This document shows, one piece after another, positions 24,417-62,723 of a stretch of DNA of 64,000 nt (the stretch's first letter is position 1; each line of letters starts with the position of its first letter). The position numbers and the translations under genes are program-made. Source of the DNA: Schmidtea polychroa (taxonomy: Eukaryota); the NCBI GenBank assembly GCA_044892525.1, contig CM097886.1, positions 182,764,312 through 182,828,311 of the forward strand, read 5' to 3'. The notes under the pieces were generated by a model. The model searched no databases, was not told the origin of the DNA, and worked only from the letters and a program-made list of their open reading frames with translations.

Positions 24417-25056
24417 AAGGACTAAAAAGATGTGTTAATGTGTATGTGTATCGGATCAATAATGACAGTTAAAGATGAATGTATGTAATTTTAAGTGTAA
24501 AGTAGCATTAATGTTTAGTTTTAGTCTCATGATTAATAAAAGTTTTGTTGTGAATTGAATATTTTATCTTTTTTAATTATATTTTTTTTTGAGATCAAAT
24601 GGAGAAAAATAAATTTAACGTGGAATTAGTCCCAATATAGGATATAAGAGTACAAAATGAGCCACCTTCGGGCGGTACGTCCTATCATCAAAGCAACCCA
24701 TTGGGAGGGGATAACCGATCAACCCAAGTGAGGAGCGTAGGGCGGGGTACCATCGCAAATGATGAGAAGTTTCTGCGGTGTGACTGATCACCACGCCAAT
24801 GTGGAAATGGATCATCGCGATCGTCGTGCGTTTCGAGCAAGGGGGGAAAGGGGAACACTCCCAAGCGGTAAAGATTAAGTCGACAAATTAACAAGCAGAG
24901 ACGGAGAAATGACAATTTAGGGTAGAAGAAGGAAAAGAGAAGTAGAAGCATGCAGATTGAGAGATATTAAGACCGAGTTGTGAGAAGTCCAGCCGGTCAG
25001 GATAATGAAGATTGAGCTGTTGAAAAATGCCAGCCAGTCGTAAAGGCCTAGAAAAT

Positions 25057-26541: not shown

Positions 26542-27264
26542 TTGGATAATTTGAAAGAACCGATAGAAATTCAAGAACCAATCATGACGAGTGTGGTAAA
26601 AACCGACGAGTATAAGGAAAAATTTAGAGGTGAACCGTTCAACGGAAATGCAAACAAGTTGGCAACGTTCATAACCAACTTCGAAGTCTATATCGATGTG
26701 TGTGGATGGACATCCGAAGCAGTTAGTAAAAGGATGCCGTTGTTTTTGTGCGATAGCGCATTAGAAGTGTATTTAGAGGCTAAAGAAAGAAATACGAAAT
26801 TGGATAAATGGGATGATATCAAGACATTCCTGAAGAAAACATTTGGAGCTAGCAAACCAATAAATCAAGCACTTGGCGAACTGGCAAATAGGAAACAAAG
26901 AGCAAATGAATCAATTACATTATACGCCAGCGAATTACGGAGATTAGCAAAGAAAGCAATGAATGGAAAATTGCCAGAGGAAAATTTGATCAGCTATTTC
27001 ATAGAGGGATTACGCCGAGAAGTGAGAGCATCTGTAGGATGTCAAATGTGCGCTACATTAGAAGAGGCCATAGATTGGGGCACGAGATGTGAACTCCATC
27101 TTCCAGCACAAATGAATATTATGCAAGAAGATGGGAGGATAGCGACAGCCATAGTAAAAACTGATAATGGAGATAGCAACAACCAAGGACCAAAAATGAA
27201 CCAATTTATACACCGGAGCACATCAAATTTTCAAACCACCACAAGGACGATCAAATGGGAATAA
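26542..27264 (+). CDS. gag: Gag capsid domain (frame open from 26257; likely ATG 26584); upstream Gag region decayed
   Basis: FNGNANKLATFITNFE...LFLCDSALEVY...RKQRANESITLYASELRRLA...FIEGL fits the retrotransposon Gag capsid pattern. Confidence 0.85.
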   Translation: MDNLKEPIEIQEPIMTSVVKTDEYKEKFRGEPFNGNANKLATFITNFEVYIDVCGWTSEAVSKRMPLFLCDSALEVYLEAKERNTKLDKWDDIKTFLKKTFGASKPINQALGELANRKQRANESITLYASELRRLAKKAMNGKLPEENLISYFIEGLRREVRASVGCQMCATLEEAIDWGTRCELHLPAQMNIMQEDGRIATAIVKTDNGDSNNQGPKMNQFIHRSTSNFQTTTRTIKWE

Positions 27265-37027: not shown

Positions 37028-37429
37028 CGGAACGGAAAAGGGCCATACGAGATCTTATTCGTAGGAGAAACTAACGTAAGAGTGAAATTAGTAAATAATC
37101 CGTTCACCAGGCCAATATACGTAAATGTGGCACGATGTAAACCGATCCCAAAAACAGCCACCAGTCAACCAGAAGGTCGTACGTTAACCACACGTTCTCA
37201 AACTTACAGAATGAACATGATGCAACAGCTCGCAGAACCAACGAATGGGCGATTGGGTATCCAACCATCAGAAGCTGAAAAGATTGTAAAAGAGGTAAAA
37301 ATTAAAATACCCGGATGGGCAAAAGATAGACTGGATTTCGAAATATTGGGAGGTCTATTGACTCTGATCGAGAACTACGCAAACCGAGAGAGGACACATC
37401 CATTGCTACGAGTAGTTAAAAGTCAATGA
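37028..37429 (+). pseudogene. Integrase C-terminal GPY/F region, in frame after TAG 37025-37027
   Basis: KL*RNGKGPYEILFVGETNVRVKL...VNVARCKP; same frame as the polyprotein. Confidence 0.85.
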
Positions 37430-40429: not shown

Positions 40430-40569
40430 AAAGGGTTATGACTGTATATAGTTGTAAAAAGTAAGTATATCTTATGTATATAACAGTATCATATTTTTAT
40501 ATAAGCGCGGTATTAATAGTATATAACGACCGGGAGAAATAAACAATATAAAATTAAATAAGATAAAGA

Positions 40570-40953
40570 TTGAGGATGTATGTAAAATTAAGAATGGAGC
40601 GAGGAAATAACGAAATAAATCGCAATACAACAACCGAAGATATGTGGAAGCAACAATGTGCTGGACTAGCACAAATAGTGTCAAATTTGCAGGAACAAGG
40701 ACTTACGATGCAAAGAAACCTGGTTGATAGCCTAAACAAGGGATTTAGCTATTTAAAAATAATCGAGGAGCAGAGAGCAGTAATAGAACAGATGCAAAGA
40801 GAGATAGAGCGGATAACAAGATACAGCCAGAGACAGGAAGAAGAATTAGTGAGGATGGCGGAAGAAGCAGAATACGAGGAAATGGAAGATTGGTCAGAAT
40901 GGTTAATGAGTAGAGAAGAGGGCGGACAGGAGGCCGACTCTTCTGAACCATAA
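40570..40953 (+). CDS. Small coiled-coil accessory protein
   Basis: 127-aa ORF with the same A-rich composition as the element, heptad-like E/Q/R-rich sequence, flanked by AT-rich spacers. Confidence 0.6.
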   Translation: MRMYVKLRMERGNNEINRNTTTEDMWKQQCAGLAQIVSNLQEQGLTMQRNLVDSLNKGFSYLKIIEEQRAVIEQMQREIERITRYSQRQEEELVRMAEEAEYEEMEDWSEWLMSREEGGQEADSSEP

Positions 40954-41019
40954 TCAAGGCCTAAAATTAAATGTAAATAACTGTAAATAAATATCGAACC
41001 TGTATCGATAAGAAATTAT

Positions 41020-42426
41020 ATGTGTATAATTGTAGACATGGATAAACAAAAGAGAGAAGAGTTCAACGAAATCATCGAGTTAGTCAGAGATTCCGCAGCA
41101 ATCAGAATACACAAACATGTCATGTGTGGAATATGTGAAAAATTATTAAAAGAACCCCATCAAACCCAATGCGGATGCAGAGTGTGCAAAGAATGTATAA
41201 AAGAAACAATAAAAAACCGACCACAGTGGTGCCCGATATGTAAAGAGACACTGATATCAAGTTTAGAAGATACTAATGAAGACAAAGCCGCGGTAAAGGA
41301 CATGTTGAACACTAATCTGGGATGTAAAAATACCCCATGTGAATGGAAAGGATCAATATGGAAAGTGAAACAACATCTGGTGGAATGTATGTACAAAGTC
41401 AGCCAGTGTGAACGATGCCAGAAATTAATTCAAGCTAACGAAGAAAAGGAACATCAAAGTCAGTGTGAAGAAAGGTTGGAAAGATGCGAATATTGCGGAG
41501 AAGTAGACACATGGAAAAATCTCACCATCAAACATCACAATGTCCAAGAGGAAAAGGTATGTGCAGAATTCTGTGGTGAATGCCCGAACGGATGCAACAA
41601 AGGGGGAGTAATAAAATTAGCCCAGCATCTAAAAGAATGCGAAAGGAAAAGAATGATATGCGTACTAGGCAAATGGGGGTGTCAGAAATTACTACACCGA
41701 GGAGACTTGCCACACCACTTAACCGAAAATGTAATAACTCACGCAGAGATGTGGTCAACTGCGCTACAAGACAGTGAAGAGAAAGTGCGACAAATGGAGA
41801 TAGAAATAACCTCACTGAAAGCATTAGTAAAAGAACTACTAGAAGAACGAGAGGCTTTTGAACAAGCTCGAGCAAACATAAAAATGCAAATTAATCGAAT
41901 GGAAATCAGTAACGATCAGGCCAAAGTACTGCATCAGAAAATAAATGAAATCAATCTAAATGAGGTAATACCAACTGCACCGTATATATGGAAAATAACG
42001 GGAGTAAAAGAAAGAGTACGAAAAGCAAAAACCGGAGAAGATACAAGACTAACAAGCCCCGCATTCCATTCCTGGAAAAACGGATACAAAATGAAAATGA
42101 AGGTATATCCCAACGGGGACGGGACCGGATTAGATACGCATTTTTCGATCTTCTTTATGCTCTGCAAAGGGGAGTATGATGAAATATTAGAATGGCCATT
42201 CCAGGCAAAAATCGATATTACACTAATGAACAACCAAAGTATACACGAGCAAAGCTTCAAAACAACGGGGAATCAGATAGCTTACCAGAGGCCCCTCAAC
42301 GAAGAAGGAGCAGCAACAGGAGCACCGACGTTCATTTTACAACAAAGGGTAGAAGATATGGCGAGAAATGATACCGTATATATCAAGATGACGGTTCGGA
42401 GGGAAGGAAAGAGTAGAACCGAGTAA
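41020..42426 (+). CDS. TRAF: Full-length TRAF-like protein (RING, TRAF zinc fingers, coiled coil, MATH/TRAF-C)
   Basis: CGICEKLLKEPHQTQCGCRVCKEC...CPIC; C-X-N..CEW, HL.EC fingers; YIWKI...SPAF...GYKM...YPNGDG...THFSIFF..KGEYD.IL.WPF. Confidence 0.93.
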   Translation: MCIIVDMDKQKREEFNEIIELVRDSAAIRIHKHVMCGICEKLLKEPHQTQCGCRVCKECIKETIKNRPQWCPICKETLISSLEDTNEDKAAVKDMLNTNLGCKNTPCEWKGSIWKVKQHLVECMYKVSQCERCQKLIQANEEKEHQSQCEERLERCEYCGEVDTWKNLTIKHHNVQEEKVCAEFCGECPNGCNKGGVIKLAQHLKECERKRMICVLGKWGCQKLLHRGDLPHHLTENVITHAEMWSTALQDSEEKVRQMEIEITSLKALVKELLEEREAFEQARANIKMQINRMEISNDQAKVLHQKINEINLNEVIPTAPYIWKITGVKERVRKAKTGEDTRLTSPAFHSWKNGYKMKMKVYPNGDGTGLDTHFSIFFMLCKGEYDEILEWPFQAKIDITLMNNQSIHEQSFKTTGNQIAYQRPLNEEGAATGAPTFILQQRVEDMARNDTVYIKMTVRREGKSRTE

Positions 42427-42619
42427 CCAGGGTGAATAATGTTGTATATAATAAATTTGTATATATCGGTGTATATAACCTATAAAATAGTATATAATAA
42501 TAGTATGGGATCCACAAATACAACAACCCAAAACTGAAGCGAAAAATCCAGGAAAAACATCAACCGAATAATAAAATCCAATAATGCGATGATATTTAAT
42601 CAGAATCTATAATTTAGAA

Positions 42620-43675
42620 ATGACACAAGAGAAAACAACTGAAACTACGATGACCCCAAATAATACCAACAAGACACAAATCCCCAGAGAATATAGTGAG
42701 AAATGGAACAAGGTGATGTTCCAATTAGCTAACCTCACCCGAAATCACATTGAGGAAGCCAGGGAGTACGAAACCCACAAATACCAATGGCTGGTAGACA
42801 ATTTAAGAACGGAAGCGGAAACATGTAAAAGGGCCGCAAAATGGGCTTCGTTAGAAAATACTCGACAAGAATCGCACAGTCACTATCTAAAACAACTACT
42901 ACAAGAATCGCGGAAAAGACTGACTGATGAGAATAAAAAACGAGAGACCGAAAAACAGAAAGAGGAGAAAAAGATGCGACATTTATTGGCAGAAGCACGA
43001 AAATGGAAACGACAGAACAGAGAAATGAGAAAGGAAATGAAGGAATTGCCTATGAGATTAGAGTACGAGAGCGAGCAGGGCAAATGGGAAGAGAACTTAG
43101 TTATAAAAGAGGAACTAAAACGGCTAAGAAAGATCGCGGCTCGGAGCCAAACCTGGCAGACTAAGGCCATGGAGTTTGAAAGACATTTAGCCATGAAACT
43201 CTCCATAAGGGAGCACGAGAATGCAGCGATGGAAGAATTGATACTCCAGCAGTCGGGGCGAGTCGGGGAATTAATAAATCAAGTTACCGAGCTAAAACGA
43301 GATGTCAATGGATATCAGGGAGCCCTAGAACAAAGAAACATAGTATTGGTAGGAAAAAATAAAAAGCTAGAAAACGAAAGAAAAATGTATAACGAAAATC
43401 TCAAAAATTTGGAGATAGAAATCGAGAAATGGAAGGGCGACGAAAAAATAAAAGAGTTGGATAGGCAACTAAAGGTAAAAGACGAAGAGATGAGATACCT
43501 CACCTACCTACTCGACGAGGAACTGAATATCACAAGAGCCTTACGAGATGAAGTACAGGAACTGAGGGCTCAAATTCCCCAATATTACATACCATATGAC
43601 CCTATTGCCGTTCAACTACAGGCAGCGGTCGAAAGCGATGAAGGATACGGGGGTCAGGAGGAAACCTTCGTATAG
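42620..43675 (+). CDS. Coiled-coil (SMC/myosin-tail-like) accessory protein
   Basis: Intact 351-aa ORF, E/K/R/L heptads; AATAAA at ~43681. Confidence 0.75.
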   Translation: MTQEKTTETTMTPNNTNKTQIPREYSEKWNKVMFQLANLTRNHIEEAREYETHKYQWLVDNLRTEAETCKRAAKWASLENTRQESHSHYLKQLLQESRKRLTDENKKRETEKQKEEKKMRHLLAEARKWKRQNREMRKEMKELPMRLEYESEQGKWEENLVIKEELKRLRKIAARSQTWQTKAMEFERHLAMKLSIREHENAAMEELILQQSGRVGELINQVTELKRDVNGYQGALEQRNIVLVGKNKKLENERKMYNENLKNLEIEIEKWKGDEKIKELDRQLKVKDEEMRYLTYLLDEELNITRALRDEVQELRAQIPQYYIPYDPIAVQLQAAVESDEGYGGQEETFV

Positions 43676-43847
43676 GGGCTAATAAAAACTTCAAAAAATT
43701 CAGAAATTGGGACCTATATCCCAAACAAAAAAATTAATAGTATGGTAAAAGTATTTAAGGGACTGTAACCCTGTGTAAATAAAAACGATATAAATGTATA
43801 AGTATAAGTCGCACTGTAGCGCATGATTAATTGTAAATATTATAGAT

Positions 43848-44552
43848 ATGAAAATTGAAGAGATAGTTGAACCCATGAGTGAAGTAGAAGAAGGAGAGAT
43901 TATAATGGAAGTCGCAGAAACACAAATACTAACGAAAAAATTACGAGAAGAGAAACGGGAAAACGAGAGATTAGTAAACAAATATATGGAAGACCGGAAA
44001 ATAATTAAAGTATTAAAGAAAGAATGCAAAATGCTAGGAGAAGTAAAGAGAGAAGCAGCAGAGAGAAATGAATGGCTGCAGGAACAACAAACACGAGGAA
44101 GAAATTGGGAAAGGATTGCAGAGGAATTATGGCAAGAGAGGGCAAGCTTCAAAGCAGAAGAAGTAATCCAAGACTACTGGAAAACAGAGGCGAGAGAACG
44201 CCAAACAACCATAAATAGATTAAATCGACAATTGGAGGAAAACCAACGAGAAAGCGGAGAAATGAAGAAATGGATTCGCAAATACAAAGAAATCGAGAGA
44301 CAACAACAACAACGAAACCCTCCACAAGAAAACGAACAAGATTTCCTACAAATCGAGTTAAAAAGAAATCTCGACAAGAAACGAGAAGAAATAAGCAAAC
44401 TAAAAAGGGAGATAAGACACCTAAAACGGGAAGCCCGTGAAAAAGATCGGCAATTAGAGATGATGCCGGAATTAAGACACCGGGTCATTAAAGCGGAGTC
44501 TACCCTGATGAGAAATGCCGAAAATAATCCCAAAGGAGAACCGTCTAACTAA
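43848..44552 (+). CDS. Coiled-coil accessory protein
   Basis: Intact 234-aa ORF, E/K/R-rich. Confidence 0.7.
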   Translation: MKIEEIVEPMSEVEEGEIIMEVAETQILTKKLREEKRENERLVNKYMEDRKIIKVLKKECKMLGEVKREAAERNEWLQEQQTRGRNWERIAEELWQERASFKAEEVIQDYWKTEARERQTTINRLNRQLEENQRESGEMKKWIRKYKEIERQQQQRNPPQENEQDFLQIELKRNLDKKREEISKLKREIRHLKREAREKDRQLEMMPELRHRVIKAESTLMRNAENNPKGEPSN

Positions 44553-44591
44553 AAGCAATTAAAGCCAGTGTAAATAATATAATAATAATAG

Positions 44592-45227
44592 ATGTATATT
44601 AGTACAATGCGGTATGAAATAGTGATAACAGTAATGGTATTAATAAATCACCTGATGGAGAAACAACCATTAAATGCTCAACTGACAAGCATACGAGATC
44701 ACCGCAATCGAAATCAACAAGCCAAACCAGAACCTTGCCAATGCCAATACCCCAGTACAATAAAAACCAACATCCTCCATAGTATCCAGTCAACTCGGTC
44801 ATATATTAATAACGTCAGAATTCTGTGCAAAAATCACCCCATATGCCGAATGATGGACCGAAAAATACTCGAACAAGTCCAACACTTCGATCAGTTGGAA
44901 CAACAAATACAACAAGAAGTGTTCGAAAATCCGGCCGAGACAACAGAAACACCCTCAAATAACAGCGACACCCACTACCTTCTCTACGTAGTGGTCACAG
45001 AAACTATCTTGTTATGCCTCATAACCTTCCTAAAAATCCTCGAAGTTAAGAAAAAATGTAAGAGCTCGAAATCTAGAGCCACCGTACAAAACCCAGCCGA
45101 AATAACCAATGTTATCCAAACCACAAGCTCACCCAGATTAAACCATAAAGAATCTCCTCAACCATCGTCTACCATAACACCAGTTCCTAATTGTAGCAGC
45201 AAACCCCAACCAGAACCATCAGAGTGA
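44592..45227 (+). CDS. Putative single-pass membrane protein
   Basis: N-terminal hydrophobic stretch, four Cys, TM YLLYVVVTETILLCLITFLKIL, S/P/T-rich tail. Confidence 0.65.
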   Translation: MYISTMRYEIVITVMVLINHLMEKQPLNAQLTSIRDHRNRNQQAKPEPCQCQYPSTIKTNILHSIQSTRSYINNVRILCKNHPICRMMDRKILEQVQHFDQLEQQIQQEVFENPAETTETPSNNSDTHYLLYVVVTETILLCLITFLKILEVKKKCKSSKSRATVQNPAEITNVIQTTSSPRLNHKESPQPSSTITPVPNCSSKPQPEPSE

Positions 45228-45480
45228 CCGAACAATGCCAGAACTGAACTAAAAACATTATGTTGTGAAAAACTTTGTTGTGTATATAAACCATCACCAT
45301 AAGTGATGCCTGCTTGGTCTTGATTTGACCTATATCTTATTAATAAAATTCTATTGATGTTTATAATTTTGTTAATCACTATGTTATCTTTTTATGAATG
45401 TGTTTATCTTTTTATGAGAGGATAAGAGTAGCTCAAGTATGCAATTGCGGGACGCAATTTTGTCGGGTCCCCGAGTGATT

Positions 45481-45977
45481 TGTTGGGCTGAGTCGAAAGC
45501 TTGATCGTCAAATTTAGGACAGATAAGACGCGAACAAATAAAATAAGACCACAAATTGCTAAAATAAATAAATCAAGAGACAAAAGAAACAATAACGTAA
45601 AATATTAAGATTAAAACAAAAAACAAAAAATAGAAAAATTAAAATAAGGTAATAAGATAAGGAATAAAATGACGAAAAATGCAACAAATAATGAGGAATT
45701 TAAGAAACAAATAAAAAATATATTAAAATAAAGAAAAATAAGGAAAAACAACCAAAGAAATAAGAAAAACAAATAAATTTAAAAGTTAAAGCGGTACTCA
45801 ATTTTGATTGGTCCGCATAAACAAAAAATTCCTATATAAGCAAACGGCAAATTCAATATAGTTACTGTTTAACAAACACCATTACAGGTAAGCTCATAAT
45901 TTTAAAAACTGACTGTTTAACAAACACCATTACAGATCAACACTCAACCATTACAGACGATCACCGACGTACAACCT
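45481..45977 (+). repeat. 3' LTR of the giant element, left piece (interrupted by the nested element)
   Basis: Matches 19817-20313. Confidence 0.92.
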
Positions 45978-46876
45978 TGTTGTGGTTGGGGCAGTCCGAT
46001 CTGGTATTTTGGCAATAGAATTTTCAGTAAGAGCATCGTCTAGATAACCGCCTTTCATAACATGACATAAGAGAACTTTATTGCGTTGCGAATTATGATT
46101 TTCGACAACTTTCATTCCATTCATTTCTTGGAATATTGGTTTCTGGTAATCAAATATACATTTGTTGCTAGTATTAACTGGCTTCCAATTAATTAATTCC
46201 TTATATGTATATAATGGTCGCATTTTTCTACAAATCGGCTGATAAAATTGAAAACTTATAAAATAAATCATAAAGAGTTAATGTCAGCTTTTATTTAATT
46301 ACCAAAATTTTTTTTGGAATATATAAACAAGCAAGGAAATCTTTTACAAAATTTATACATATAAGTAAACAAAATTACAAAAAATACAAAATTATATCAT
46401 TCGATAAAAAATAAACAGATTTTTAAAAATATATAATTTAAAAAGCTTACGATTTTATAAAGTTCGCGTAAGAATTTCACATAGTCAATTACTAATAAAT
46501 AAATGCAAAATAAACAAATTTAGGTTTTTATATTATTGTTAGGATTTGTTCCGTATTTCGCGAATTGTAATGGATGAGGGTGTTGGTCTATGAGAGCCAA
46601 CACTAAAACTATTGGGAGCCGAATACAGTTTATCTTGATAATGATAACATGGCATCGAATTTGCTTTACTCTTCTGAGATTGATTAATAGAGCCTGATTG
46701 ATAAGTAGAAGTATTAGCTGATCGCACGAATTTTGATTGACTGTTATTGTGTTCTGTTTGGTCCTTAGTCGCTGGTGACCGCGCATTTATATATATAATA
46801 TAATATCGTATAATATAATATAATATAGTATAATAGGTATATAGATATTGTTAAGGCCGTGTAACGGCTCACTACA
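45978..46876 (-). repeat. 3' LTR of the nested element
   Basis: Differs from 53037-53936 at two positions seen by eye (one substitution, one 1-bp indel). Confidence 0.95.
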
Positions 46877-47045
46877 TCAGCCCCACGGGAAGTCGCGGAG
46901 CGCACAGGGACTCAAGAATAGAGATTGATGAAAGATCTACTAGAAACAAGATGTAAGTCGAAAAGTAGTGACAATTTATGAAAGGTAGATAGTGTCTAAA
47001 AAGGAAATCGGTGATTGATGAATTAATTGATCACATGGAATAAAG

Positions 47046-50000
47046 TTAAGTGAATTTCAGCATCAGATGTGTCAAGTTTTCATTGGAATAGACTCTGGCA
47101 AGTCTTGGAGGTTTGGAAATGTCTTCCCCAATTTGGCGCACCCAAATCTTATCACTATGTTTCACATTTTTCGCGGTTCGCTGCTTGTCGGGTTTCGAAA
47201 CAATTGAGCGAAGATTAAGTGGATTTGTTGTTGCTGAATGTGTATTCTCTGTAGCTAAATTTTCATCGCGTTGGTAGTTTGTGATCATGGTACGCACGAT
47301 TTCGTTTGAGTCCGTGGCCGGTTCTACTGAAAGGTTTTCGTTCGACGTAGTTGAAATGGGTTCGACTGAGACTTTCTCTAAATCAGAGTGAAGTTTGTCT
47401 TCGTCCACGTCATCAGAAATCATAAAAGCCGGTTTAAGTCGGCACAAATTTATATTTTGGGTAACACCGTTAATAACGATGTGAGCATTGTTATCCTTAA
47501 TGTCGATCAATTTGTAAGGCCCCGAATATCTCGGTTTGAGACCTGAATCCGTAATATTACGAAGATAAACGTGAGTTGCGTCCTTGAAGGACTTTGGGAC
47601 GTACGGTGTATATGAGGAAGCATAAGAAAACTGTGGGTTGCTATCGATCGAAAGAAAATGATCTCTAGCCATATCTAATTCCTCAAAGGTAGGAGCGTTA
47701 TCGAAATCAACTAATTCGTTAGGTAACGATGTTGAAGAACCAAAAAGTAACTGTGCCGGTGTAGTTCCGGTAGTCCTGGAGGGTGTGTTACGCCAACCAA
47801 GAAGGACAAAAGGTAAAGCTTTAGTCCAATTAAGTCTCGATGAAAGTATTCCAAGAGAGGTCTTCAAAGTACGGTGAAATCTTTCGATCATGCCGTTTGT
47901 CTGAGGATGGTAAGCAGTTGAACGGAGGTGTTGTATACCGAGCTTTTCAGTTAGCTGTTGAAATAACTGGGATTCAAACTGAGATCCCCTGTCTGTGATT
48001 ATTGATTTCGGAACACCGTATCTAGAAATCCAATGTTGCAAAATTGAATTTGCTACAATTTCAGCAGAAATGTTTTTCAGAGGAATAACTTCAAACCAAC
48101 GCGTTTTCCGGTCAATCATAGTTAATAAGTAAGAAAAACCGTGATCAGAAGGCAAGGGGTCGACCAGGTCGATGTGAAGAATTTCGAACCTATTTCTGGT
48201 CGGATAGTGAATCATCTGTGGCTTAGTGTGTCTAGTGATCTTGTGTTGTTGACAACCGATGCACTGACTCACCCACAATTTAATATCGTGCCTCATTGCT
48301 GGCCAAACCACATGTGAATGCAATAGGTTAAAGGTAGCCGACGAGCCTGGATGATGTAAGTCGTGAATGGAGTGGAAAGCTAATTTCCGTAAGGAATCGT
48401 GCAAAATCGGTCTTAAAACACCTGATAAAGACGAGTCAAAGTGTACTCCGTCCACGATTTCAAGTTTATCGCCAAAAGCAGCTAGATCTTTTGCCGAAGG
48501 TGGATTGTCGCGGAGGCACTGTACTGGAAATATCGGATCGTGCAATATAGCGTTGGTGCTGCGGGAAAGACAGTCTGCAATAACGTTTTCTTTGCCGGCA
48601 ATGTGGCGTATTTCGCAAGAAAATTCTGAAATATAACTGATTTGCCTCTGTTGTCGTGGAGATGGGTCTTTCATTCCAAAAAGATAAGTTAGCGGTTTGT
48701 GGTCAGTGTAGATGACAAAAGGACGACCTTCAAGCAAGTGCTTGAAATGTTTGATTGAAAGATATATGCCTAAGAGTTCTCGGTCGAAAGCCGAATATTT
48801 CCGTTGAGCGGAAGAAAGTTTCTTTGAGAAAAACTCTAAGGGTTCAGAAATGTCATTATGTAATTGGTGTAATACTGCACCAATAGCAACGTTTGATGCA
48901 TCAGTGGTCAGACTCCAAGGTAAATCAGCATTGGGAAAATGGAGTGTTTGGATTTTCGAAAGTGCCGACTTAGCGTTTTCAAATGCACTGAGTGTGGTAT
49001 CGCTCCATGACACTAAAGACTTTTTTGGTTTTGAGACGAGACCTGAAAGAGGTGACAAAATGTCAGAAACCCCTGGAATAAAACGATGACAATAGTTTAT
49101 CGTTCCAAAAAAACTTCTCAGTTGTGAAACTGTTTTTGGAAGTGGGAATTTGGCTATGGTATCTAGTCTATCCGGAGGAGGTCGGATTCCATCTGCGGAA
49201 ATTAAATGTCCCAGGAAACGAGTCTCGTGTTGGAAGAAGGTACACTTATCGACGTTTACCTTAAGGTTGTATTGCCGAAGTGCTGTTAAAGTTTTTGTCA
49301 GATGGGTTATATGCGTCTCTAAGTCAGGTGATCCGACTAAAATGTCGTCTATGTAAGGAACTGCGAAAGGCAGGTCCATTAAGACTTGATCAATATACCT
49401 TTGAAAGGTCTGTGCAGAATTCCGAAGGCCAAATGGCATATGCACGTACTCGAAAAGTCCGATCGGAGTTATTACGGCTGTTTTTTCTATGTCAGACTCT
49501 CGCACGGGTATCTGATGGTACGCCTTCACGAGGTCGATTGTGGAGAAAATCTTTGCCTTTGAAAGACGGTGAAGGATATCACTAACAAGCGGCATGCTAT
49601 AGGAATCATGTACCGTAATAGCATTAAGGTTTCGATAGTCGCCACACGGACGGAAAGTGCCATCTTTTTTTGGGACCAGGTGCAATGGCGATGACCATGG
49701 AGATTTAGATCTCCGAATGGTACCCTCATGTAAGAGGTTAGTAAACTCGGAACGTACAAATTCGAGTTTTTCATTCGACAGTGGTCTAATTTTGCATCTA
49801 ACTGGTAAAGATGAAGTTGTGTCGATCGTGTGGCAGTAAAGCGGCTTCGAAACGTCACTTATTGGCGTGTTAAAACACCTATTAATAATATCTAAGGCTA
49901 TTTTTGGGTGTTCGATTGTTATAACCGTTTTCGACGGAGTAGTATTTATATCGTCCGTTCCTATCCGTTGTGGATCTTCAAAGATGTTTGAGGGAATAGT

Positions 50001-50411
50001 GCTGCAGTTTAATTGATTATTTATCCTTAAAGTGCGTCCGCGGCAATCTACGAGTAGTTCGTTAGCGCTTAAAAAATCAGATCCTGATATGGGGATAATA
50101 ACCTCTGCTATATAAAATTTCCACTCAAATAATTGGTCGGACAGAAATGGCAACGAGAAAGCAATTGTCTTTGAACCTAAAGTCTCAACAACACTACCGT
50201 TTGCGGCCTTCAAAGAAATATCGACAGTGTTGAGGTCTGGAAGGTACTCTTTAGGTAAGATCGACAAGCTGGAACCAGTGTCGACAAGGAATTTTAGTCT
50301 GTTGGAAGGAGACGACAATATATTAAAAGCGTTTGACTCTGCTTCTATTAAAAATAAATCTGATTTCGATGAAATTTTGCCTCCCACCTCTGCCGCTAGA
50401 AGTGGTGGCAT
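47046..50411 (-). CDS. pol: Pol (PR-RT-RH-IN) of the nested element
   Basis: LVDTGSS, PCGDYRNLN, YIDD, TDAS, TDHKPL, HHCC, DLVD/TDRG/IERFHR, PRYSGPY. Confidence 0.97.
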   Translation of the reverse strand: MPPLLAAEVGGKISSKSDLFLIEAESNAFNILSSPSNRLKFLVDTGSSLSILPKEYLPDLNTVDISLKAANGSVVETLGSKTIAFSLPFLSDQLFEWKFYIAEVIIPISGSDFLSANELLVDCRGRTLRINNQLNCSTIPSNIFEDPQRIGTDDINTTPSKTVITIEHPKIALDIINRCFNTPISDVSKPLYCHTIDTTSSLPVRCKIRPLSNEKLEFVRSEFTNLLHEGTIRRSKSPWSSPLHLVPKKDGTFRPCGDYRNLNAITVHDSYSMPLVSDILHRLSKAKIFSTIDLVKAYHQIPVRESDIEKTAVITPIGLFEYVHMPFGLRNSAQTFQRYIDQVLMDLPFAVPYIDDILVGSPDLETHITHLTKTLTALRQYNLKVNVDKCTFFQHETRFLGHLISADGIRPPPDRLDTIAKFPLPKTVSQLRSFFGTINYCHRFIPGVSDILSPLSGLVSKPKKSLVSWSDTTLSAFENAKSALSKIQTLHFPNADLPWSLTTDASNVAIGAVLHQLHNDISEPLEFFSKKLSSAQRKYSAFDRELLGIYLSIKHFKHLLEGRPFVIYTDHKPLTYLFGMKDPSPRQQRQISYISEFSCEIRHIAGKENVIADCLSRSTNAILHDPIFPVQCLRDNPPSAKDLAAFGDKLEIVDGVHFDSSLSGVLRPILHDSLRKLAFHSIHDLHHPGSSATFNLLHSHVVWPAMRHDIKLWVSQCIGCQQHKITRHTKPQMIHYPTRNRFEILHIDLVDPLPSDHGFSYLLTMIDRKTRWFEVIPLKNISAEIVANSILQHWISRYGVPKSIITDRGSQFESQLFQQLTEKLGIQHLRSTAYHPQTNGMIERFHRTLKTSLGILSSRLNWTKALPFVLLGWRNTPSRTTGTTPAQLLFGSSTSLPNELVDFDNAPTFEELDMARDHFLSIDSNPQFSYASSYTPYVPKSFKDATHVYLRNITDSGLKPRYSGPYKLIDIKDNNAHIVINGVTQNINLCRLKPAFMISDDVDEDKLHSDLEKVSVEPISTTSNENLSVEPATDSNEIVRTMITNYQRDENLATENTHSATTNPLNLRSIVSKPDKQRTAKNVKHSDKIWVRQIGEDISKPPRLARVYSNENLTHLMLKFT

Positions 50412-51757
50412 TATAAGTTTTTTTGATTGCTTGCTTTAGGTTTTGTGTAATTGGAGCAGCCTTCGAAGCATTTTAAGGCTTTATCTCCAAACCTGTCGTG
50501 GTATATGCACTTGTCAAGTATCTGACAGGATGGTGCTTTATCTCGCCAATTGCAACCTAGATAGCAGAACCGTGCCTTGTTACGAAACTTAAAATGGAAA
50601 CGGCACAGGTTCCTGGTTGCAGGGGAAGGTGAACGTTGACGAGTATTTTGCACGAAGTGTGATTTTTGGGCATATTGCCTGTCGTCATTTGTCTGCCTGG
50701 TGGACATGCTATTCTCAAGCTCGCTGATGCGTTTAGTGAGGCCTGTAATAGCGCAAAGTAAGGCTTCTTCGGTCGAAGGTTTTAAAGAAGAAGGTAAAAT
50801 TTCGGGGTTAGTGCTGCTACTTAACTGCACAGAGCAAGTTGGTTGCGGACCAAGTGGCACGACTTCGTTAATCTTGTCGGCCATCTTTGCTAGCTCTACC
50901 ACGTCTGCTGTTGACGAAAGCGCTAAAATTTGTTGTGCGTGTGGCGGTAAAGCAGACAGAAAAAATTGCCTCAAGAGTTTTTGATCCGCCGCAGCCTCCG
51001 GGTGTATTTGCGTTAGTTCCGCCATAGCGTGTTGCAAGAACTGTGATGGTTTTCTGCTGCCCAAAGTTTGCGTCTTGAAGTATTTAGTGAAGACGGCAGC
51101 TGTAGGTTCCTTAAAAATATCGAGGATTGCCGTACGCAATTCTTCATATGGGTTTTTTACGCTAGTAGGCGAAGTGCGAAGGATCACGGACGAAAGTTTA
51201 CTTAATATCGTCGGCGGAATCAACGGCAAGATGCGACAGTATTTGTCTCGTGAACTGGTTACCTCGATTCCCTCGAGTGCTAGTTCGGTAGCTATCAGCC
51301 AAGTAAGTAGAGAGTTATTCTCATCCAAAAAATATTGACATAAGTACGTTGATCGCTGGTTGTTGGACCTACGCTTATGTTTTGCCTGTTTGGGGTTGCT
51401 GCATGAGTCATTCTCCGAATCGGAGGAACCGCCAGAAAGTGGCAACAAACAATGAATGACGCTGTATGGTGTCACTCCATAGTCGCCCAAGGTACGACTG
51501 TCGGAAAGGATGTTGCCGTTATACGACAAGAGAAAATGGCATTTGTGATTAGTCAATGTCCTGTAATTTTTAGAAAGACCTTTAATTGTAGTGTCTGTGT
51601 CAACTGAAACGGTTTGTGTCTTATTTGTTCCAGGGTTTTCTATTAATATTTGGAACTTTTTGGGCCCCGGTGCGGCGCTACCCTCTCGTGTGGGCTGATG
51701 CTTATTTATATAATTTTTTATAATTTTATATATGATATCAATAATAATATAAATCAA
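50411..51757 (-). CDS. gag: Gag with N-terminal ubiquitin-like domain and two CHCC zinc motifs
   Basis: Ubl at 51655-51428 ending LPLSGG; capsid PYEELRTAIL...LGSRKPSQFL...LRQFFLSALP; two Cx2Hx9Cx3C motifs. Confidence 0.9.
   Translation of the reverse strand: MIYIIIDIIYKIIKNYINKHQPTREGSAAPGPKKFQILIENPGTNKTQTVSVDTDTTIKGLSKNYRTLTNHKCHFLLSYNGNILSDSRTLGDYGVTPYSVIHCLLPLSGGSSDSENDSCSNPKQAKHKRRSNNQRSTYLCQYFLDENNSLLTWLIATELALEGIEVTSSRDKYCRILPLIPPTILSKLSSVILRTSPTSVKNPYEELRTAILDIFKEPTAAVFTKYFKTQTLGSRKPSQFLQHAMAELTQIHPEAAADQKLLRQFFLSALPPHAQQILALSSTADVVELAKMADKINEVVPLGPQPTCSVQLSSSTNPEILPSSLKPSTEEALLCAITGLTKRISELENSMSTRQTNDDRQYAQKSHFVQNTRQRSPSPATRNLCRFHFKFRNKARFCYLGCNWRDKAPSCQILDKCIYHDRFGDKALKCFEGCSNYTKPKASNQKNL
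50417..50423 (-). other. Probable -1 ribosomal frameshift site A AAA AAC at the gag-pol junction (also a TAATG stop/start overlap)
   Basis: Minus strand CAA AAA AAC TTA TAA TG; pol is in the -1 frame relative to gag. Confidence 0.75.
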
Positions 51758-53330
51758 TAATAATATAGTATAATTTAATAATAATATAATTTAGAGGTAA
51801 TCGATCTAAGGTACCTGGCGGTGCTGACACGGGCATTGCTCTATTGAGTCTCGATTCGCTGGGAGACGGTTTATTATCGTGAATAAATGGCTGTCCCGGT
51901 GCACGAGAGTTTAATGTGAAAAAATCATTATTCTGTTGCATTAAGAATTCATTTGGATTTGGTCGAAGCATGATGCGTTGTGGGGCTGTGTGTAAGACAT
52001 CACTCGTTAGCGATTTGTTATTTGGTATATAATTATTGATCGGAGTCATTTTTTGACGATTTTCAACGGCAATCATCTCAGCCAATGCTTGCCGGGAAAC
52101 ATTAATCGAATCAAAATCTATATCGGCTGTATCTTTATATTTCTGATCGTAATGTGAGTTCGGTTTCTCCGAGCCAAATATGCGATTTATATCCATTTCG
52201 TTTCGATACTGATACTGACCGTAGTTAAGCACACCGTTGTTGTTTGCCTGTTGATTGATGTTGTGATCGTATGACTGATTATTATTGTTGTTATTGTTGA
52301 TTGCGGCGTGGTTTTGAGAATTTAAATGGTAGAAACTTTCCAGCAGAGAATTCGACGAACCAACTGAATTCAAACTGTTCATAAATGATTTCTGATCTGA
52401 AACTCCTGACAGGGGAGGTGTGGAATTCAGTGTACTGTGGAATTCAGTAATATCATTAACAACTGAGCTATTGAAAGCACTGAATAGGGGAAATTCGGAT
52501 TTAATATCCGATGATTCAGATTGTAATTGAATACTTTTATTGATAAATTTGAAAGACGATTTATTTATCGGGTCAGCAATTTGAAATTGACCATTTGGGA
52601 TATGATTATTATCTGTGATATTTGCAGGGGTTGAAATGGAATTACTTGATGATGTAGACTGCTGTAATTCTTTATAATACATATTTAAATCCTTACATAG
52701 AACGACTACAGGATCCACAGAATCACGATCTAGAATTGTCTGAATTAATTTGATATACTCTTCTCGATTCGATGACAAACAACAGGAATGAGCAATTATC
52801 AAATGATCTATCAGCCTATCAATATCATGGGATATAAGATTAAATTTTGATGAAAGTTTTAATTCAGAAAATATTTTGGAAAGCATATGGAACATATTTT
52901 GACGTAATTCCGCTGTTCGTTTATGAGAAACTAACATAGATTGTATTTCCTGTAATCTGGATTTAACAATGATATTAGATAAATAAGTTTCTAATTGTTC
53001 AAATCTTGAACATTGTTCTGGCACTTCTGACACCAATGTTGTGGTTGGGGCAGTCCGATCTGGTATTTTGGCAATAGAATTTTCAGTAAGAGCATCGTCT
53101 AGATAACCGCCTTTCATAACATGACATAAGAGAACTTTATTGCGTTGCGAATTATGATTTTCGACAACTTTCATTTCATTCATTTCTTGGAATATTGGTT
53201 TCTGGTAATCAAATATACATTTGTTGCTAGTATTAACTGGCTTCCAATTAATTAATTCCTTATATGTATATAATGGTCGCATTTTTCTACAAATCGGCTG
53301 ATAAAATTGAAAACTTATAAAATAAATCAT
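51738..53330 (-). CDS. Extra ORF0 starting inside the 5' LTR: ENGase (GH85) N-terminal fragment fused to an unknown helical, N/S/Q-rich region
   Basis: 530 open codons crossing the LTR end and PBS; LYTYKELINWKP and SQRNKVLLCHVMKGGYLDD match ENGase LSSLEELLAWKP and SQRPRTLLCHDMMGGYLDD. Confidence 0.7.
   Translation of the reverse strand: MIYFISFQFYQPICRKMRPLYTYKELINWKPVNTSNKCIFDYQKPIFQEMNEMKVVENHNSQRNKVLLCHVMKGGYLDDALTENSIAKIPDRTAPTTTLVSEVPEQCSRFEQLETYLSNIIVKSRLQEIQSMLVSHKRTAELRQNMFHMLSKIFSELKLSSKFNLISHDIDRLIDHLIIAHSCCLSSNREEYIKLIQTILDRDSVDPVVVLCKDLNMYYKELQQSTSSSNSISTPANITDNNHIPNGQFQIADPINKSSFKFINKSIQLQSESSDIKSEFPLFSAFNSSVVNDITEFHSTLNSTPPLSGVSDQKSFMNSLNSVGSSNSLLESFYHLNSQNHAAINNNNNNNQSYDHNINQQANNNGVLNYGQYQYRNEMDINRIFGSEKPNSHYDQKYKDTADIDFDSINVSRQALAEMIAVENRQKMTPINNYIPNNKSLTSDVLHTAPQRIMLRPNPNEFLMQQNNDFFTLNSRAPGQPFIHDNKPSPSESRLNRAMPVSAPPGTLDRLPLNYIIIKLYYIIIDLYYY
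53022..53035 (-). promoter_or_regulatory. Primer-binding site, tRNA-Leu(CAA)
   Basis: TGGTGTCAGAAGTG one base after the 5' LTR, complementary to the tRNA-Leu 3' end CACTTCTGACACCA. Confidence 0.9.
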
Positions 53331-53936
53331 AAAGAGTTAATGTCAGCTTTTATTTAAATTACCAAAATTTTTTTTGGAATATATAAACAAGCAAGGAAAT
53401 CTTTTACAAAATTTATACATATAAGTAAACAAAATTACAAAAAATACAAAATTATATCATTCGATAAAAAATAAACAGATTTTTAAAAATATATAATTTA
53501 AAAAGCTTACGATTTTATAAAGTTCGCGTAAGAATTTCACATAGTCAATTACTAATAAATAAATGCAAAATAAACAAATTTAGGTTTTTATATTATTGTT
53601 AGGATTTGTTCCGTATTTCGCGAATTGTAATGGATGAGGGTGTTGGTCTATGAGAGCCAACACTAAAACTATTGGGAGCCGAATACAGTTTATCTTGATA
53701 ATGATAACATGGCATCGAATTTGCTTTACTCTTCTGAGATTGATTAATAGAGCCTGATTGATAAGTAGAAGTATTAGCTGATCGCACGAATTTTGATTGA
53801 CTGTTATTGTGTTCTGTTTGGTCCTTAGTCGCTGGTGACCGCGCATTTATATATATAATATAATATCGTATAATATAATATAATATAGTATAATAGGTAT
53901 ATAGATATTGTTAAGGCCGTGTAACGGCTCACTACA
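53037..53936 (-). repeat. 5' LTR of the nested element
   Basis: Followed by the PBS; TG...CA ends. Confidence 0.95.
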
Positions 53937-55937
53937 AACCTAAACGACTATCAGTGACAATTAGATTTTCAACTCAGTACAATAACCGAATTCAGCTTTT
54001 CGACTCAGCTTTTCGAGATCACAGATCGATAAAGAATAAAGTAAGGATGTATTCTTATTATGAATTTGAGTAAATGTTTCTCATGGAAGTTAATAGTAAT
54101 AATGTTTATTATCACAATTTTAATAAAATTTTAATGTTCTCTCCATTTGGTCTCATATTTTAATAATCAAGTATTTTCAGTAATGAAATTTAAAGCCTTT
54201 TATGATAGATACTATGCATGATAATTTCGATTTTTATGGAATTTATATGAAAATTATGATCGAGTAACGTGGAGTTGAGGAGACCTGTACCATGGTGTGA
54301 GGAGCCTTCGGGAGCTCAGCCGGTGGGTACAGGCTTCTTCAATCACGCAGCTGACGTGGGCCGGAAAGTGGGGGCTTCCTCACGGGTCCGTCGCTGAGGG
54401 AATTAAAATGTTGCAAGAATTAGCTGACAATAACATAGAGTACCATTCGGATTTGACAATGAGAACGATCTTAAAAACAATGACTGAGGTGGCTACAAAA
54501 CGTTTATTTTTCGAAACTCATCATCCTTAGCTGTTACATCTTGAATTCTTTACCTAATATCCGTGATTAGTCTGAATTGCCTAAGTGTACCAATCGACAT
54601 TCCATCTTCTGAGTACCAAACCCTTTTCTGTTGAAATGCACGTCAATTTCCGTCTGACCTGTAGAAACTGAGTACCAACCCATTCGTCGACGCTATACAA
54701 TCACATGAGAAGTATAGATGAAATTTATTGGACACAATTTTTTAATAAGAAAATGTATTACGAAACTGTTTTATTTTTAACCAAATTATTTCGAAGTGTT
54801 CTGAAAATTACACTCACAGTAGGATAAACTCCCTTCAGTGAAGGACACCTCCGATTGACCTTGTCAAATTGCAGATTTTTCGAATAAGTCGAAGGAAATG
54901 TCCACGAAATAAAGTTATCCAAGTAGAAAACACAATTAACTGCACATCGCGGGGAATAAATCCAACATTAGCGTTTGATGAGAGAGCAACCTAGATGACA
55001 TATTGATTCCACGAATTGATTCGGCCCAGTGGTGTATTGCGATCATCTGCGAACGATAATTCCGATAATGAGCAAACATACGAGATAAATCACACGCACT
55101 AACACACTAGTACTTACTCACATATGCGACAAGCAGTATTTTCCCAGTCAGCTACAAGTATTGAGAACCGAAATTGAAACACGCACATACAACAAGGTTG
55201 GCTCGGATAGATAGCAGGCTGCCTGTCTCATGCTTCCATTATCTGGCGTGACGAACTATTTTACATGAGATTAATCTTATTACAGGTGTTTCCCGACATA
55301 CAATTAATTTCATCGTAGATTAAAATTTTAACTTGCAGGATGATAATTCCGAACATCAATAATAGATAACGGCCAGGTGATTAGTGTATATTCCAAACAA
55401 TTTGGTATTAAACAGAGACCCAGCAGCTATTGAGTGGAGATTAATTTTGCCTGCGCATCCGCTTGCCGAGGTGGGAATTCTGAGTTATGTCCTGGGGGAA
55501 TAATGCGTTGGTTAAGGGGGAAATCGGAAGGCGTTAACAATAAAATTTTGTTTTCTGCGTTTGGTCTATTTCCAAAGATATTATTTGAAGGAATTATTAG
55601 TTATCGGCTCAATTTCGTTGTCCATTTTGTGTACAAGGAGGTTGGGCATCCCCGCATCTAATTAATTACGAATTTGTTTTGTTGTTTCTCCATTACACCA
55701 AGGGAAAGGGGGTCACGGCTTACAACTCGACCGGTAGATGACATTCGAATTTAATAATAATAACTCAGAGATTTTCTTCACCCATTAGCATAAATCCCTT
55801 CCTCTTAATATATTAGGACCACATCAAAATTAATGTATAGCTTGTAGGAAAATTCATAGATGATTAGGCCACCAGGCTGGTTTAATAGACATAGCAAATC
55901 TTGTATTTTATCCTTATTGTTTCTTTCATTATAGCCA

Positions 55938-56693
55938 TTGAGAATGTTACCAAGCTCGAAGTCGTCTCTCAAACCCTGCTTCTCATGCTCAGATAAGAAT
56001 TCTATAATCAGGGATTTGCAAGCCCAGATCGGTCGATACAAGAAAGCGATCGACCATCTGGAAGGTACATGGTTCAGCCCAGTACAAATGAAGGAGGTAC
56101 AAAAGAAATTGTACCGAAGCGAGCACTGTCGCGACGCCTTAATAAGCGAGAGTAGGGCCCAACGCAGTCTTATCAAAGAGCAGTCCGAGGCTCTACACAA
56201 GGTCTACGTACAAGCGGCAGCAACTAGAAAGATAGTGAGTATACCTATCAATGGAGCGGACGACCTTTTCCCCGTCCATCATGAACTTCCTTCCAATTCG
56301 TCATCTTCGGCTAAGAAGCCCTGCCGGGAATGCGTGGAAGCCGATCTCTCTCCCAGGTCAACCATAGTGTCTCCCATTGGAGCCCAGAAAGGGTTATCAT
56401 CGACCGCGTCTTCCTCTGTCGTACTATCAAACACCCTGATTGTTCCAAAACCCAAGCGTCGACAGTTGTCCAGAGCTGAGCGTAAAAAGCGTCAGCGCGA
56501 ACGAGCAATCGCCAAACAAAGTGGACTATCTGCCGAGCTCTCCAGTACTTCGAACGATCCCCCTGTAACGATCGATTTAACCGTAGGGATCCCAGGGCGA
56601 ATCATCTCCGCCGCTGGTGTAACTTGGGAGGAGAATGCCTCCGAATTCTTCGAGCTGGAGGAGCTGTTAGCCGACGCAGAATGGGAAAAGTAA
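55938..56693 (+). CDS. Second copy of the LTR-encoded 251-aa protein
   Basis: Identical translation to 22310-23065. Confidence 0.65.
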   Translation: MRMLPSSKSSLKPCFSCSDKNSIIRDLQAQIGRYKKAIDHLEGTWFSPVQMKEVQKKLYRSEHCRDALISESRAQRSLIKEQSEALHKVYVQAAATRKIVSIPINGADDLFPVHHELPSNSSSSAKKPCRECVEADLSPRSTIVSPIGAQKGLSSTASSSVVLSNTLIVPKPKRRQLSRAERKKRQRERAIAKQSGLSAELSSTSNDPPVTIDLTVGIPGRIISAAGVTWEENASEFFELEELLADAEWEK

Positions 56694-59930: not shown

Positions 59931-59986
59931 TTACATAATATATTTAATTAATCCTATTGTGTGTGTGTAAATTTTAATATATAAAA

Positions 59987-62712: not shown

Positions 62713-62723
62713 GTCGACAAGCC

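Follow-up and report, generated by a model that had tools for sequence, protein, structure and literature searches.

A 64,000-nucleotide stretch of Schmidtea polychroa DNA (GenBank assembly GCA_044892525.1, contig CM097886.1, forward-strand positions 182,764,312 to 182,828,311; hereafter the window) contains, between the long terminal repeats (LTRs) of a retroelement, a whole TRAF gene that runs from a RING finger to a C-terminal MATH domain. By its gene content the element is a Burro-type giant Ty3/Gypsy element bearing an envelope (env) gene, and the silent sites and relatives of the TRAF gene indicate that the element family has had it as an accessory gene for a long time and that it is no fresh capture. 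The explanation that we favor, with a probability of about 0.6, is that it would be expressed as a retargeted adaptor/ligase which, together with the death- and ubiquitin-related proteins of the element, keeps host cells alive or damps their defence.

TRAF gene and predicted protein

The gene occupies a single open frame on the forward strand (40987-42426), in which the first ATG, at 41020, would give a protein of 468 amino acids. The true start is probably Met7 at 41038, since this residue aligns with Met1 in all four closest relatives and a YAG ends 2 nt 5′ of its ATG; alignment A1 and the AlphaFold2 model both begin one residue after it. Aligned to the full-length library protein P0004 over 442 columns (residues 24-459 of 462), the window protein shows no gap of more than 4 residues, so the coding region is, by this comparison, free of introns.

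The MATH domain is recognized by Pfam above its cut-off (E = 9e-27 and 2e-25), whereas the finger block taken alone gives a Sina-type zinc finger below cut-off (E = 5.5e-5) and no zf-TRAF match in Pfam. Sequence comparison with the PDB gives the coiled coil and MATH of TRAF3 (E = 9e-29), with the stalks of the two proteins aligned, the RING and finger of TRAF6 (E = 3e-15), and TRAF5 (E = 4e-13). Aligned with 13 relatives (14 TRAFs in all), the window protein has the zinc ligand at each of ten invariant Cys/His columns and at the near-invariant ones, and its Cys/His spacing corresponds, by our count, to one RING and five zinc fingers; the fourth RING ligand is Cys instead of the usual His, as it is in 9 of the 13 aligned relatives. 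The AlphaFold2 model has a mean predicted local distance difference test score of 84 and shows one 74-residue helix, at high local score, followed by a strand sandwich. Its predicted template modeling score is low (0.39) because the elongated shape leaves the domain positions loose. TRAF3 is the best Foldseek match of the model (E = 3e-17), and the top matches are TRAF3, TRAF2, and TRAF1. The protein thus has the canonical TRAF2-6 layout, with RING and zinc fingers, a coiled coil before the MATH, and a C-terminal MATH/TRAF-C domain, and the complete intronless TRAF gene described in the sequence-only reading of the window, with its one open frame, is borne out.

TRAF1, 2, 3, and 5 share a hydrophobic pocket, a serine triad, and an Arg/Tyr polar pocket (PMC6125299). 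In the alignment to TRAF3 and TRAF1, the hydrophobic pocket of the window protein stays hydrophobic (F378, I400, F413, Y422, A435) and its polar pocket is K361/Y363, with K361 facing the arginine of the two reference proteins, but the serine triad is lost, Q419-I420-A421 standing opposite the three serines. The surface is therefore not of the TRAF1/2/3/5 receptor-binding type for Px(Q/E)E motifs, which combines a serine triad with an Arg/Tyr pocket. Drift in the triad is not special to the element, since five relatives of normal composition (P0011, P0013, P0015, P0017, P0019) retain the first serine only. The earlier claim that all domains are intact accordingly stands for the fold and the zinc ligands but does not extend to every binding residue. 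Because the receptor-binding triad is lost, the protein is probably a retargeted adaptor/E3 ligase; the loss argues for a changed, not a copied, receptor specificity. The protein would be TRAF-like in its working and should not be filed as a TRAF2/3 orthologue. A role as signalling mimic, which had also been proposed, is a plausible prediction.

The element that carries the gene

Self-comparison of the window recovered a 4,778-bp LTR and a partner split by a nested gypsy element (Table 1). The outer LTRs have TG...CA ends, differ at 8 positions in ~4,780 bp, and are flanked on both sides by the duplication AATGT; without the nested insertion the element spans 30,443 bp, with an internal region of 20.9 kb. 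The TRAF gene lies between these matching LTRs with their 5-bp target-site duplication and is therefore carried by a retrotransposon, as the sequence-only reading had it. Assignment to Ty3/Gypsy (Metaviridae) follows from the gag gene, the order protease (PR), reverse transcriptase (RT), ribonuclease H (RH), integrase (IN), the TG...CA LTRs, and the short target-site duplication.

As in Burro elements, the overall length is ~30 kb, the internal region remains within 25 kb, and a mononegavirus-type env lies between the gag region and the protease. This env is a Monjiviricetes-type fusion protein (PF24664, E = 3e-70, 32177-33196), in frame before the PR at 33764. The polyprotein also has a ubiquitin-like stretch (E = 6e-4) and a Bcl-2-like stretch (E = 0.03), both below cut-off and in the order published for Burro, while ankyrin repeats are clear in an accessory open reading frame (ORF; Pfam E = 2e-17). 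A dUTPase-like stretch, called in print by HHpred, gave no Pfam match and no relevant PDB match between PR and RT (34010-34330). Inside the LTR, ORF2 encodes a cIAP-type RING (E = 2e-11) and has its probable start at Met20 (23931), where a YAG stands 2 nt before the ATG. No BIR domain was found by Pfam in any of the scanned element ORFs, LTR ORF2 included. We call the element Burro-type, and not Burro1, because of this missing BIR beside the cIAP-type RING.

In the RT search, the best 120 of 1,366 matches come mainly from chimeric gene models in a pseudoscorpion and in plants (31-49% identity); none is a named Burro sequence, and the closest relatives among the matches listed are P0269 (61%) and P0270 (59%). 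P0269 has gag, knuckles, ubiquitin-like stretch, env, ankyrins, and pol all in one ORF. Compared with it, the core of the window element is broken twice: capsid and zinc knuckles are in different frames, and an in-frame TAG (37025-37027) ends the polyprotein inside the C-terminal region of the integrase, cutting off its tail. Both breaks may be either real or assembly errors. The ankyrin repeats, which lie between env and protease in the P0269 polyprotein, form a separate downstream ORF here (37430-40429), and this difference in placement suggests that modules move within the element family.

Composition and relatives of the TRAF gene

The sequence-only reading had noted that the gene shares the A-rich composition of the element, and the agreement proved close. 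Base use is A 0.41 and T 0.19 in TRAF, and A 0.41 and T 0.20 in the polyprotein; four-fold sites (A/C/G/T) number 76/26/29/11 in TRAF vs 563/174/219/100 in the polyprotein (chi-square p = 0.88). At the same kind of sites TRAF differs from the nested gypsy pol (p = 6e-11) and from a Polinton-like capsid gene in the window (p = 4e-13). Its codon use correlates at 0.87 with the polyprotein, vs 0.02-0.57 for the ORFs outside the element with non-negative values.

A library search with the protein gave 6,302 matches, and the best whole-length identity among the 150 matches listed is 35% (P0004). A single-sequence word search scored 7,997 candidates and retained 1 protein; of the 5 proteins recovered by a profile search, 3 were new TRAF relatives. 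The amino-acid skew of the window protein, expressed as its KREQ/SLFY ratio, is shared by 4 of 57 examined TRAF/MATH matches (2.5-3.8, the others having 0.6-1.3); the 57 are the 13 that were viewed and 44 of over 600 amino acids, from 151. This is a weak test, as the matches carry no taxon labels; it points to a minor share of the planarian TRAF/MATH expansion for the skewed family. Seven relatives were collected in all, and the ratio is 2.5-3.8 in six of them, 1.75 in P0274, 2.3 in the window protein, and 0.9-1.3 in nine other TRAFs. P0004 is whole (35% identity), while deletions or missing ends interrupt P0014, P0021, P0137, and P0272-P0274, whose mutual identities of 47-87% are those expected of decaying copies of a repeat. 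P0002, P0003, and P0005-P0010, of 850-3,050 amino acids and ordinary composition, contain 6-19 tandem TRAF-like stretches.

In trees, the window TRAF groups with P0004, P0014, P0021, and P0137 at support of 87/86 (N-terminal part) and 91/90 (MATH), and with P0004 at 99/96; the last tree contained 9 full-length proteins, and 13 of the 150 listed library matches were viewed. A look-up of P0004 led to generic TRAF clusters (Cnidaria, Chordata, Arthropoda). The nine TRAFs of normal composition that were aligned are just 27-32% identical to the window TRAF, which suggests that the capture is old. The zinc ligands and the frame of the gene are kept, whereas the core of the same element copy has its two breaks. 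We take the gene to be long-held because its silent-site base use matches the polyprotein and because skewed relatives exist, six of them broken. The possibility of a one-off capture, which the sequence-only reading had raised against its own proposal, does not hold, given this family of similarly skewed relatives and the presence of MATH_TRAF_C in Burro1 and in the Burro of Dugesia tigrina (PMC6431247).

A second capture is possible. The ~50 N-terminal residues of P0011 match the integrase tail of the window element (residues 15-52; 39% over 38 residues, pairwise E = 1e-6), with a score that was reached by 0 of 2000 shuffles and of which the other 12 viewed TRAFs attain at most half. A complete TRAF of ordinary composition continues in the same frame after this tail, an arrangement suggesting that, elsewhere, a TRAF became joined downstream to a gypsy integrase, possibly by separate capture in another LTR element. 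A grouping of the window TRAF with P0011 alone was rejected (approximately unbiased test, p-AU = 0.011), and a grouping of the window TRAF, P0004, and P0011 was not (p-AU = 0.19).

Accessory row and spacer signals

Six ORFs follow pol in the order ankyrin protein, 125 amino acids, TRAF, 351 amino acids, 234 amino acids, and 211 amino acids, and the spacers behind them share the word TGTA(A/T)ATA (in RNA, UGUA(A/U)AUA). It occurs 11 times, in all six spacers (shuffle mean 0.6; matched by 0 of 1000 shuffles), and is absent from the sense strand of the element ORFs and the leader. The word was first spotted by eye, and a blind ranking was added as a control, in which it came out as the top gapped word; 6 of 1000 shuffles had some word in all six spacers, and none had any word in six spacers with 11 copies. 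Each LTR has a further copy in the gap separating its ORFs (23320 and 56948), and three more were counted in 12.7 kb of flank. Three of the words stand 17-51 nt past the TRAF stop. The spacer 8-mer is identical to the canonical Pumilio element UGUANAUA (bioRxiv 10.64898/2026.03.10.710821) and occupies the sense strand of what would be 3′ untranslated sequence; we predict that it acts as a Pumilio-type element.

A YAG is found 0-2 nt before the ATG in 4 of the 6 accessory ORFs (Met7 being taken for TRAF), compared with 59 of 510 background ATGs, a result obtained in 1 of 5000 draws; one of the four, at the end of the spacer behind TRAF, stands 2 nt before the ATG of the 351-residue ORF. The baculovirus-late-type motif DTAAG is not enriched in the spacers (159/1000 shuffles), and TATATAA is (0 of 1000 shuffles reach its 7 copies). 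In flatworm spliced-leader operons, as described in Macrostomum lignano, genes on the same strand lie ~100 bp apart and are resolved to single mRNAs at acceptors near the start codon (PMC8629364).

The spacer word could also have another meaning, affecting the regulation only and leaving TRAF as its own transcription unit: it may be a 3′-end signal, with UGUA bound by cleavage factor Im near AAUAAA, or a TATA- or forkhead-like internal promoter. The words at 40982, 42443, and 43774 overlap or abut AATAAA, and the enrichment of TATATAA would fit a promoter. On the other hand, the 8-mer is fixed at seven positions and varies at position 5 alone, as does the published Pumilio element; it is on the sense strand only, 14-54 nt past the upstream stop in five of six spacers; and it is present in the last spacer too, where no ORF follows within the internal region. 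We lean toward the Pumilio-type element, while regarding the alternative as a serious competitor.

Proposed role and alternatives

In the mechanism that we propose, the element would have acquired its TRAF in the distant past from the mRNA of a host TRAF gene, with selection maintaining it since. The transcript of the element would be cis-spliced, or trans-spliced to a spliced leader, into single mRNAs, each with Pumilio-type 3′ control, and TRAF would be made from its own processed RNA, with the acceptor-like YAG before Met7 at one end and, at the other, a 3′ spacer with Pumilio-type words and AATAAA. The product would be a trimeric adaptor and ubiquitin ligase joining host tumor necrosis factor (TNF)-receptor or innate-immune complexes. 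Because the serine triad is lost, it would probably bind partners other than the classical Px(Q/E)E receptors, or reshape host TRAF trimers through its coiled coil. With the cIAP-type RING of the LTR, the Bcl-2-like and ubiquitin-like stretches, and the ankyrin protein, its most likely effect would be to keep the expressing cell alive or to damp its defence. Burro elements have been suggested to meddle with apoptosis and ubiquitination, and MATH_TRAF_C, BIR, BCL2-like, and ankyrin motifs occur in them (PMC6431247). Outside support comes from the planarian TRAFs of the host, which cells require to survive (PMC7586133), and from the RING and BIR of Burro1, which are reported to shield stem cells from apoptosis (as cited in PMC13465017).

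Several observations weigh against this explanation. The RING match is below the Pfam cut-off (E = 8e-4, 19.6 bits vs a cut-off of 21), and the Bcl-2-like match is weak and without a counterpart in the PDB. BIR is the domain through which cIAPs bind TRAF2, and with none beside the LTR RING a TRAF-IAP complex is not implied. The element-borne status of the TRAF relatives is argued from composition and decay; the join of the window TRAF with P0004 unites two long branches, and the make-up of P0004 fails the test of the tree model. At the RNA level, YAG is missing at the ATG of two of the six accessory ORFs, AATAAA is not enriched in the spacers (287/1000 shuffles), and full-length genomic RNA would have to by-pass the internal poly(A) signals.

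The gene might instead serve mainly the host, in stem-cell survival and regeneration, as a mutualist selected on the host even in immobile copies. Such a role has a precedent in the Burro1 IAP, whose RING and BIR are reported to protect stem cells from apoptosis (as cited in PMC13465017); it would fit an open TRAF in a copy with broken gag and integrase, and the Pumilio-type words would link TRAF expression to stem-cell RNA control. We nevertheless consider it unlikely: with LTRs differing at 8 sites the copy is too young for an intact TRAF to show host selection, and six of the seven close relatives are broken, as in decaying element copies. RNA interference (RNAi) of BURRO1 left the smedwi-2 phenotype unimproved (PMC8532177), which says little either way. 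Distinctly less probable still is that TRAF ubiquitinates or scaffolds the element's own proteins, in polyprotein processing or in particle assembly or release, and leaves host signalling untouched. The ubiquitin-like domain of the polyprotein, the second RING in the LTR, the neighbouring coiled-coil ORFs, and the lost receptor-binding triad could all be accommodated in this way, but the protein retains the full TRAF domain order as well as its two other pockets, TRAF domains come, go, or shift among Burro families (PMC6431247), and none of the 120 listed RT-bearing polyproteins, P0269 included, matches TRAF, which is therefore not core to replication. As retroelements do pick up host mRNAs, and a single TRAF copy is visible in the window, the gene could finally be a recent chance capture that is useless to the element. 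This is very improbable, and largely refuted, as the silent sites match the element fully, no close host-like TRAF was found among the matches listed, a family of skewed relatives exists, and the gene has no remnant of a poly(A) tail and shares its spacer signals with the other accessory genes.

If the retargeted adaptor/ligase is correct, a retroelement would possess its own form of an adaptor central to immunity and cell death, complete with the ligase end and altered in its receptor pocket. Targeting this one gene would then help to tell whether Burro-type elements work against host signalling or in its favor. The spacer code could explain, in a form open to testing, the expression of the six ORFs downstream of pol, and would tie a retroelement to Pumilio control. 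The expansion of TRAF/MATH genes in planarians, invoked in the sequence-only reading, is in print (PMC6109357); most planarian MATH transcripts are without RING and fingers (PMC7586133). Some transcripts counted as planarian TRAF/MATH genes may derive from element copies, which could be filtered out cheaply by their amino-acid and silent-site skew. A wider view, which taken whole is doubtful, is that Burro-type elements resemble complex retroviruses, with an accessory row that is organized like an operon, gives each gene its own acceptor and a Pumilio-controlled 3′ end, and encodes a retargeted TNF-receptor survival module (whole TRAF, cIAP-type RING, Bcl-2-like stretch, ankyrin protein) under stem-cell RNA control, and that gypsy elements captured TRAF more than once, as P0011 may indicate, feeding part of the flatworm TRAF/MATH expansion.

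Other features of the window

Table 1. Features of the TRAF-bearing element and the insertion nested in it (window positions)
Feature	Position	Strand	Basis or remark
5′ LTR, 4,778 bp, TG...CA	19820..24597	+	target-site duplication AATGT, 19815-19819 and 58227-58231
LTR ORF1, 249 aa, no Pfam family	22316..23065	+	second copy in 3′ LTR, 55935-56693
LTR ORF2, N-terminal helical part and cIAP-type RING	23874..24416	+	second copy in 3′ LTR, 57454-58044
gag capsid ORF	26584..27264	+	frame differs from following zinc knuckles
Polyprotein, 3,275 aa	27200..37027	+	three CCHC, ubiquitin-like, weak Bcl-2-like, env, PR, RT, RNase H, IN; Pfam
Integrase C-terminal tail beyond TAG, same frame	37028..37429	+	continuous with polyprotein in P0269 and P0270
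Ankyrin-repeat ORF, two predicted membrane segments, 981 aa	37484..40429	+	Pfam E = 2e-17
Accessory row, six T-enriched spacers of 39-256 nt	40430..45483	+	each with at least one TGTA(A/T)ATA and A(A/T)TAAA
Accessory ORF, 125 aa, no Pfam family	40576..40953	+	ORF, Pfam scan
Spacer before TRAF	40954..41037	+	two TGTAAATA words (40972, 40982), ATTAAA, AATAAA, YAG 2 nt before Met7
TRAF gene, open, uninterrupted	41038..42426	+	462 aa from Met7 (468 aa from ATG 41020); Pfam, PDB, Foldseek, model, alignments
RING finger, Cys at ligand 4	41125..41241	+	residues 36-74 counted from 41020
Zinc-finger block, five fingers	41323..41742	+	Cys/His spacing
Coiled-coil stalk (TRAF-N), one 74-residue helix	41731..41952	+	model
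MATH/TRAF-C domain	41983..42402	+	Pfam, PDB, Foldseek
Spacer after TRAF, likely 3′ untranslated region	42427..42619	+	three TGTATATA words (42443, 42458, 42470), two AATAAA
Accessory ORF, 351 aa, charged, probably coiled-coil, no Pfam family	42620..43675	+	ORF, Pfam scan
Accessory ORF, 234 aa, probably coiled-coil	43848..44552	+	weak Fib_alpha match below cut-off
Accessory ORF, 211 aa, one predicted membrane segment	44592..45227	+	ORF, Pfam scan
3′ LTR, first part, to nested insertion	45484..45977	+	self-comparison
Nested unrelated Ty3/Gypsy element, 7.96 kb, 900-bp LTRs (2 differences)	45978..53936	-	target-site duplication AACCT; splits 3′ LTR
3′ LTR, second part, ends CA	53937..58226	+	self-comparison

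Of the eight LTR differences, five cluster within the initial 500 bp, and four of these five occupy a 55-bp stretch; they lie just ahead of the site where the nested element inserted (19960-20165 vs 45624-45829). The bases just inside the LTRs partly echo the target-site duplication (AATG at 24598-24601, TGT at 45481-45483), and the called LTR ends could be a few bases off. TGG stands 2 nt after the 5′ LTR with no tRNA to match, the window having no tRNA genes; a purine run lies ~50 nt before the 3′ LTR, not adjoining it, and folding of the sequence that precedes the 3′ LTR reaches at best z = -1.8. LTR ORF1 is without the codon bias of the element (correlation 0.09). The leader contains three 69-bp tandem repeats (25057-25263) and, upstream of gag, a strong acceptor-like pyrimidine run ending in AG (25880-25898). 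In the young nested gypsy element, the gag-side ORF opens with a ubiquitin-like domain (E = 1e-8), and an extra upstream ORF of 532 amino acids has no Pfam family.

Outside the element, a broken non-LTR retroelement on the reverse strand (161-7019) has its RT at 161-1045 and a 471-bp tandem duplication at 2122-3067, with, upstream, a frame of 1,063 amino acids containing three 225-nt repeats. Pieces that by eye resemble a hAT-type transposase, with no Pfam match, are found at 9907-11182 and 8825-9318, with a pair of 73-bp inverted repeats. Two N gaps lie left of the element (17293-17436 and 18960-19218). Polinton/adintovirus-like genes for a double-jelly-roll capsid, an integrase fused to a phospholipase-A2-like domain, and an A32 ATPase occupy 59978-63999.

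Comparison with known systems

With the TRAF1/2/3/5 subfamily (PMC6125299) the window TRAF shares the domain order and the MATH fold, has its best sequence and fold matches there, and has in common the hydrophobic pocket and the tyrosine of the polar pocket. It differs in having Q-I-A in place of the triad, Lys for Arg in the polar pocket, and Cys for His in the RING, in its overall identity of ~30%, and in being intronless and inside an LTR element. Smed-TRAF-1/2 and -2A/B are host genes, and TRAF-2A/B has RING, fingers, and MATH, as does the window TRAF, beside which the Smed-TRAFs are set here by description only; host planarian TRAFs are needed for cell survival on RNAi (PMC7586133). The accessory row is like the Macrostomum lignano operons (PMC8629364) in its same-strand genes, putative acceptors near the start codon, and gaps of ~100 bp, and unlike them in lying inside a retroelement that also needs full-length RNA.

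Among retroelements, TRAF-C/MATH domains of Burro elements are in print (PMC6431247), which lowers the novelty of the present gene; what seems new is the whole protein and the apparent RNA-control signals of the row itself. The excerpts of PMC8532177, PMC13238120, and PMC11410931 contain nothing on TRAF, and the literature search turned up neither a complete RING-to-MATH TRAF located downstream of pol nor Pumilio elements in a retroelement of this kind, either of which Lee 2026, Grohme 2018, or Jurka 2007 may hold. Burro1 B-IAP (Lee et al. 2026, as cited in PMC13465017) is a host apoptosis regulator captured by Burro; it is a different captured gene from the window TRAF, and the RING of the window LTR is of cIAP type. 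Burro1/GYPSM1 and Burro-2 to -4 of Schmidtea mediterranea and the Dugesia tigrina Burro (PMC6431247) are, like the window element, ~30 kb long with LTRs, and share with it a gag with three CCHC, a mononegavirus-type env in frame before PR-RT-RH-IN, ankyrin repeats, TRAF-related coding sequence, and accessory ORFs; the ubiquitin-like and Bcl-2-like stretches, below cut-off in the window element, may be further points in common. In Burro1, MATH_TRAF_C is a domain in a polyprotein of 4,873 amino acids, and in D. tigrina it is found as an upstream accessory ORF (PMC6431247). Unlike Burro1, the window element has a shorter polyprotein (3,275 amino acids plus gag), its ankyrins in a separate ORF, and an IAP-type RING inside the LTR with BIR not detected; and unlike all the named Burros, it has a whole RING-finger-coil-MATH gene standing alone downstream of pol, the third of six accessory ORFs.

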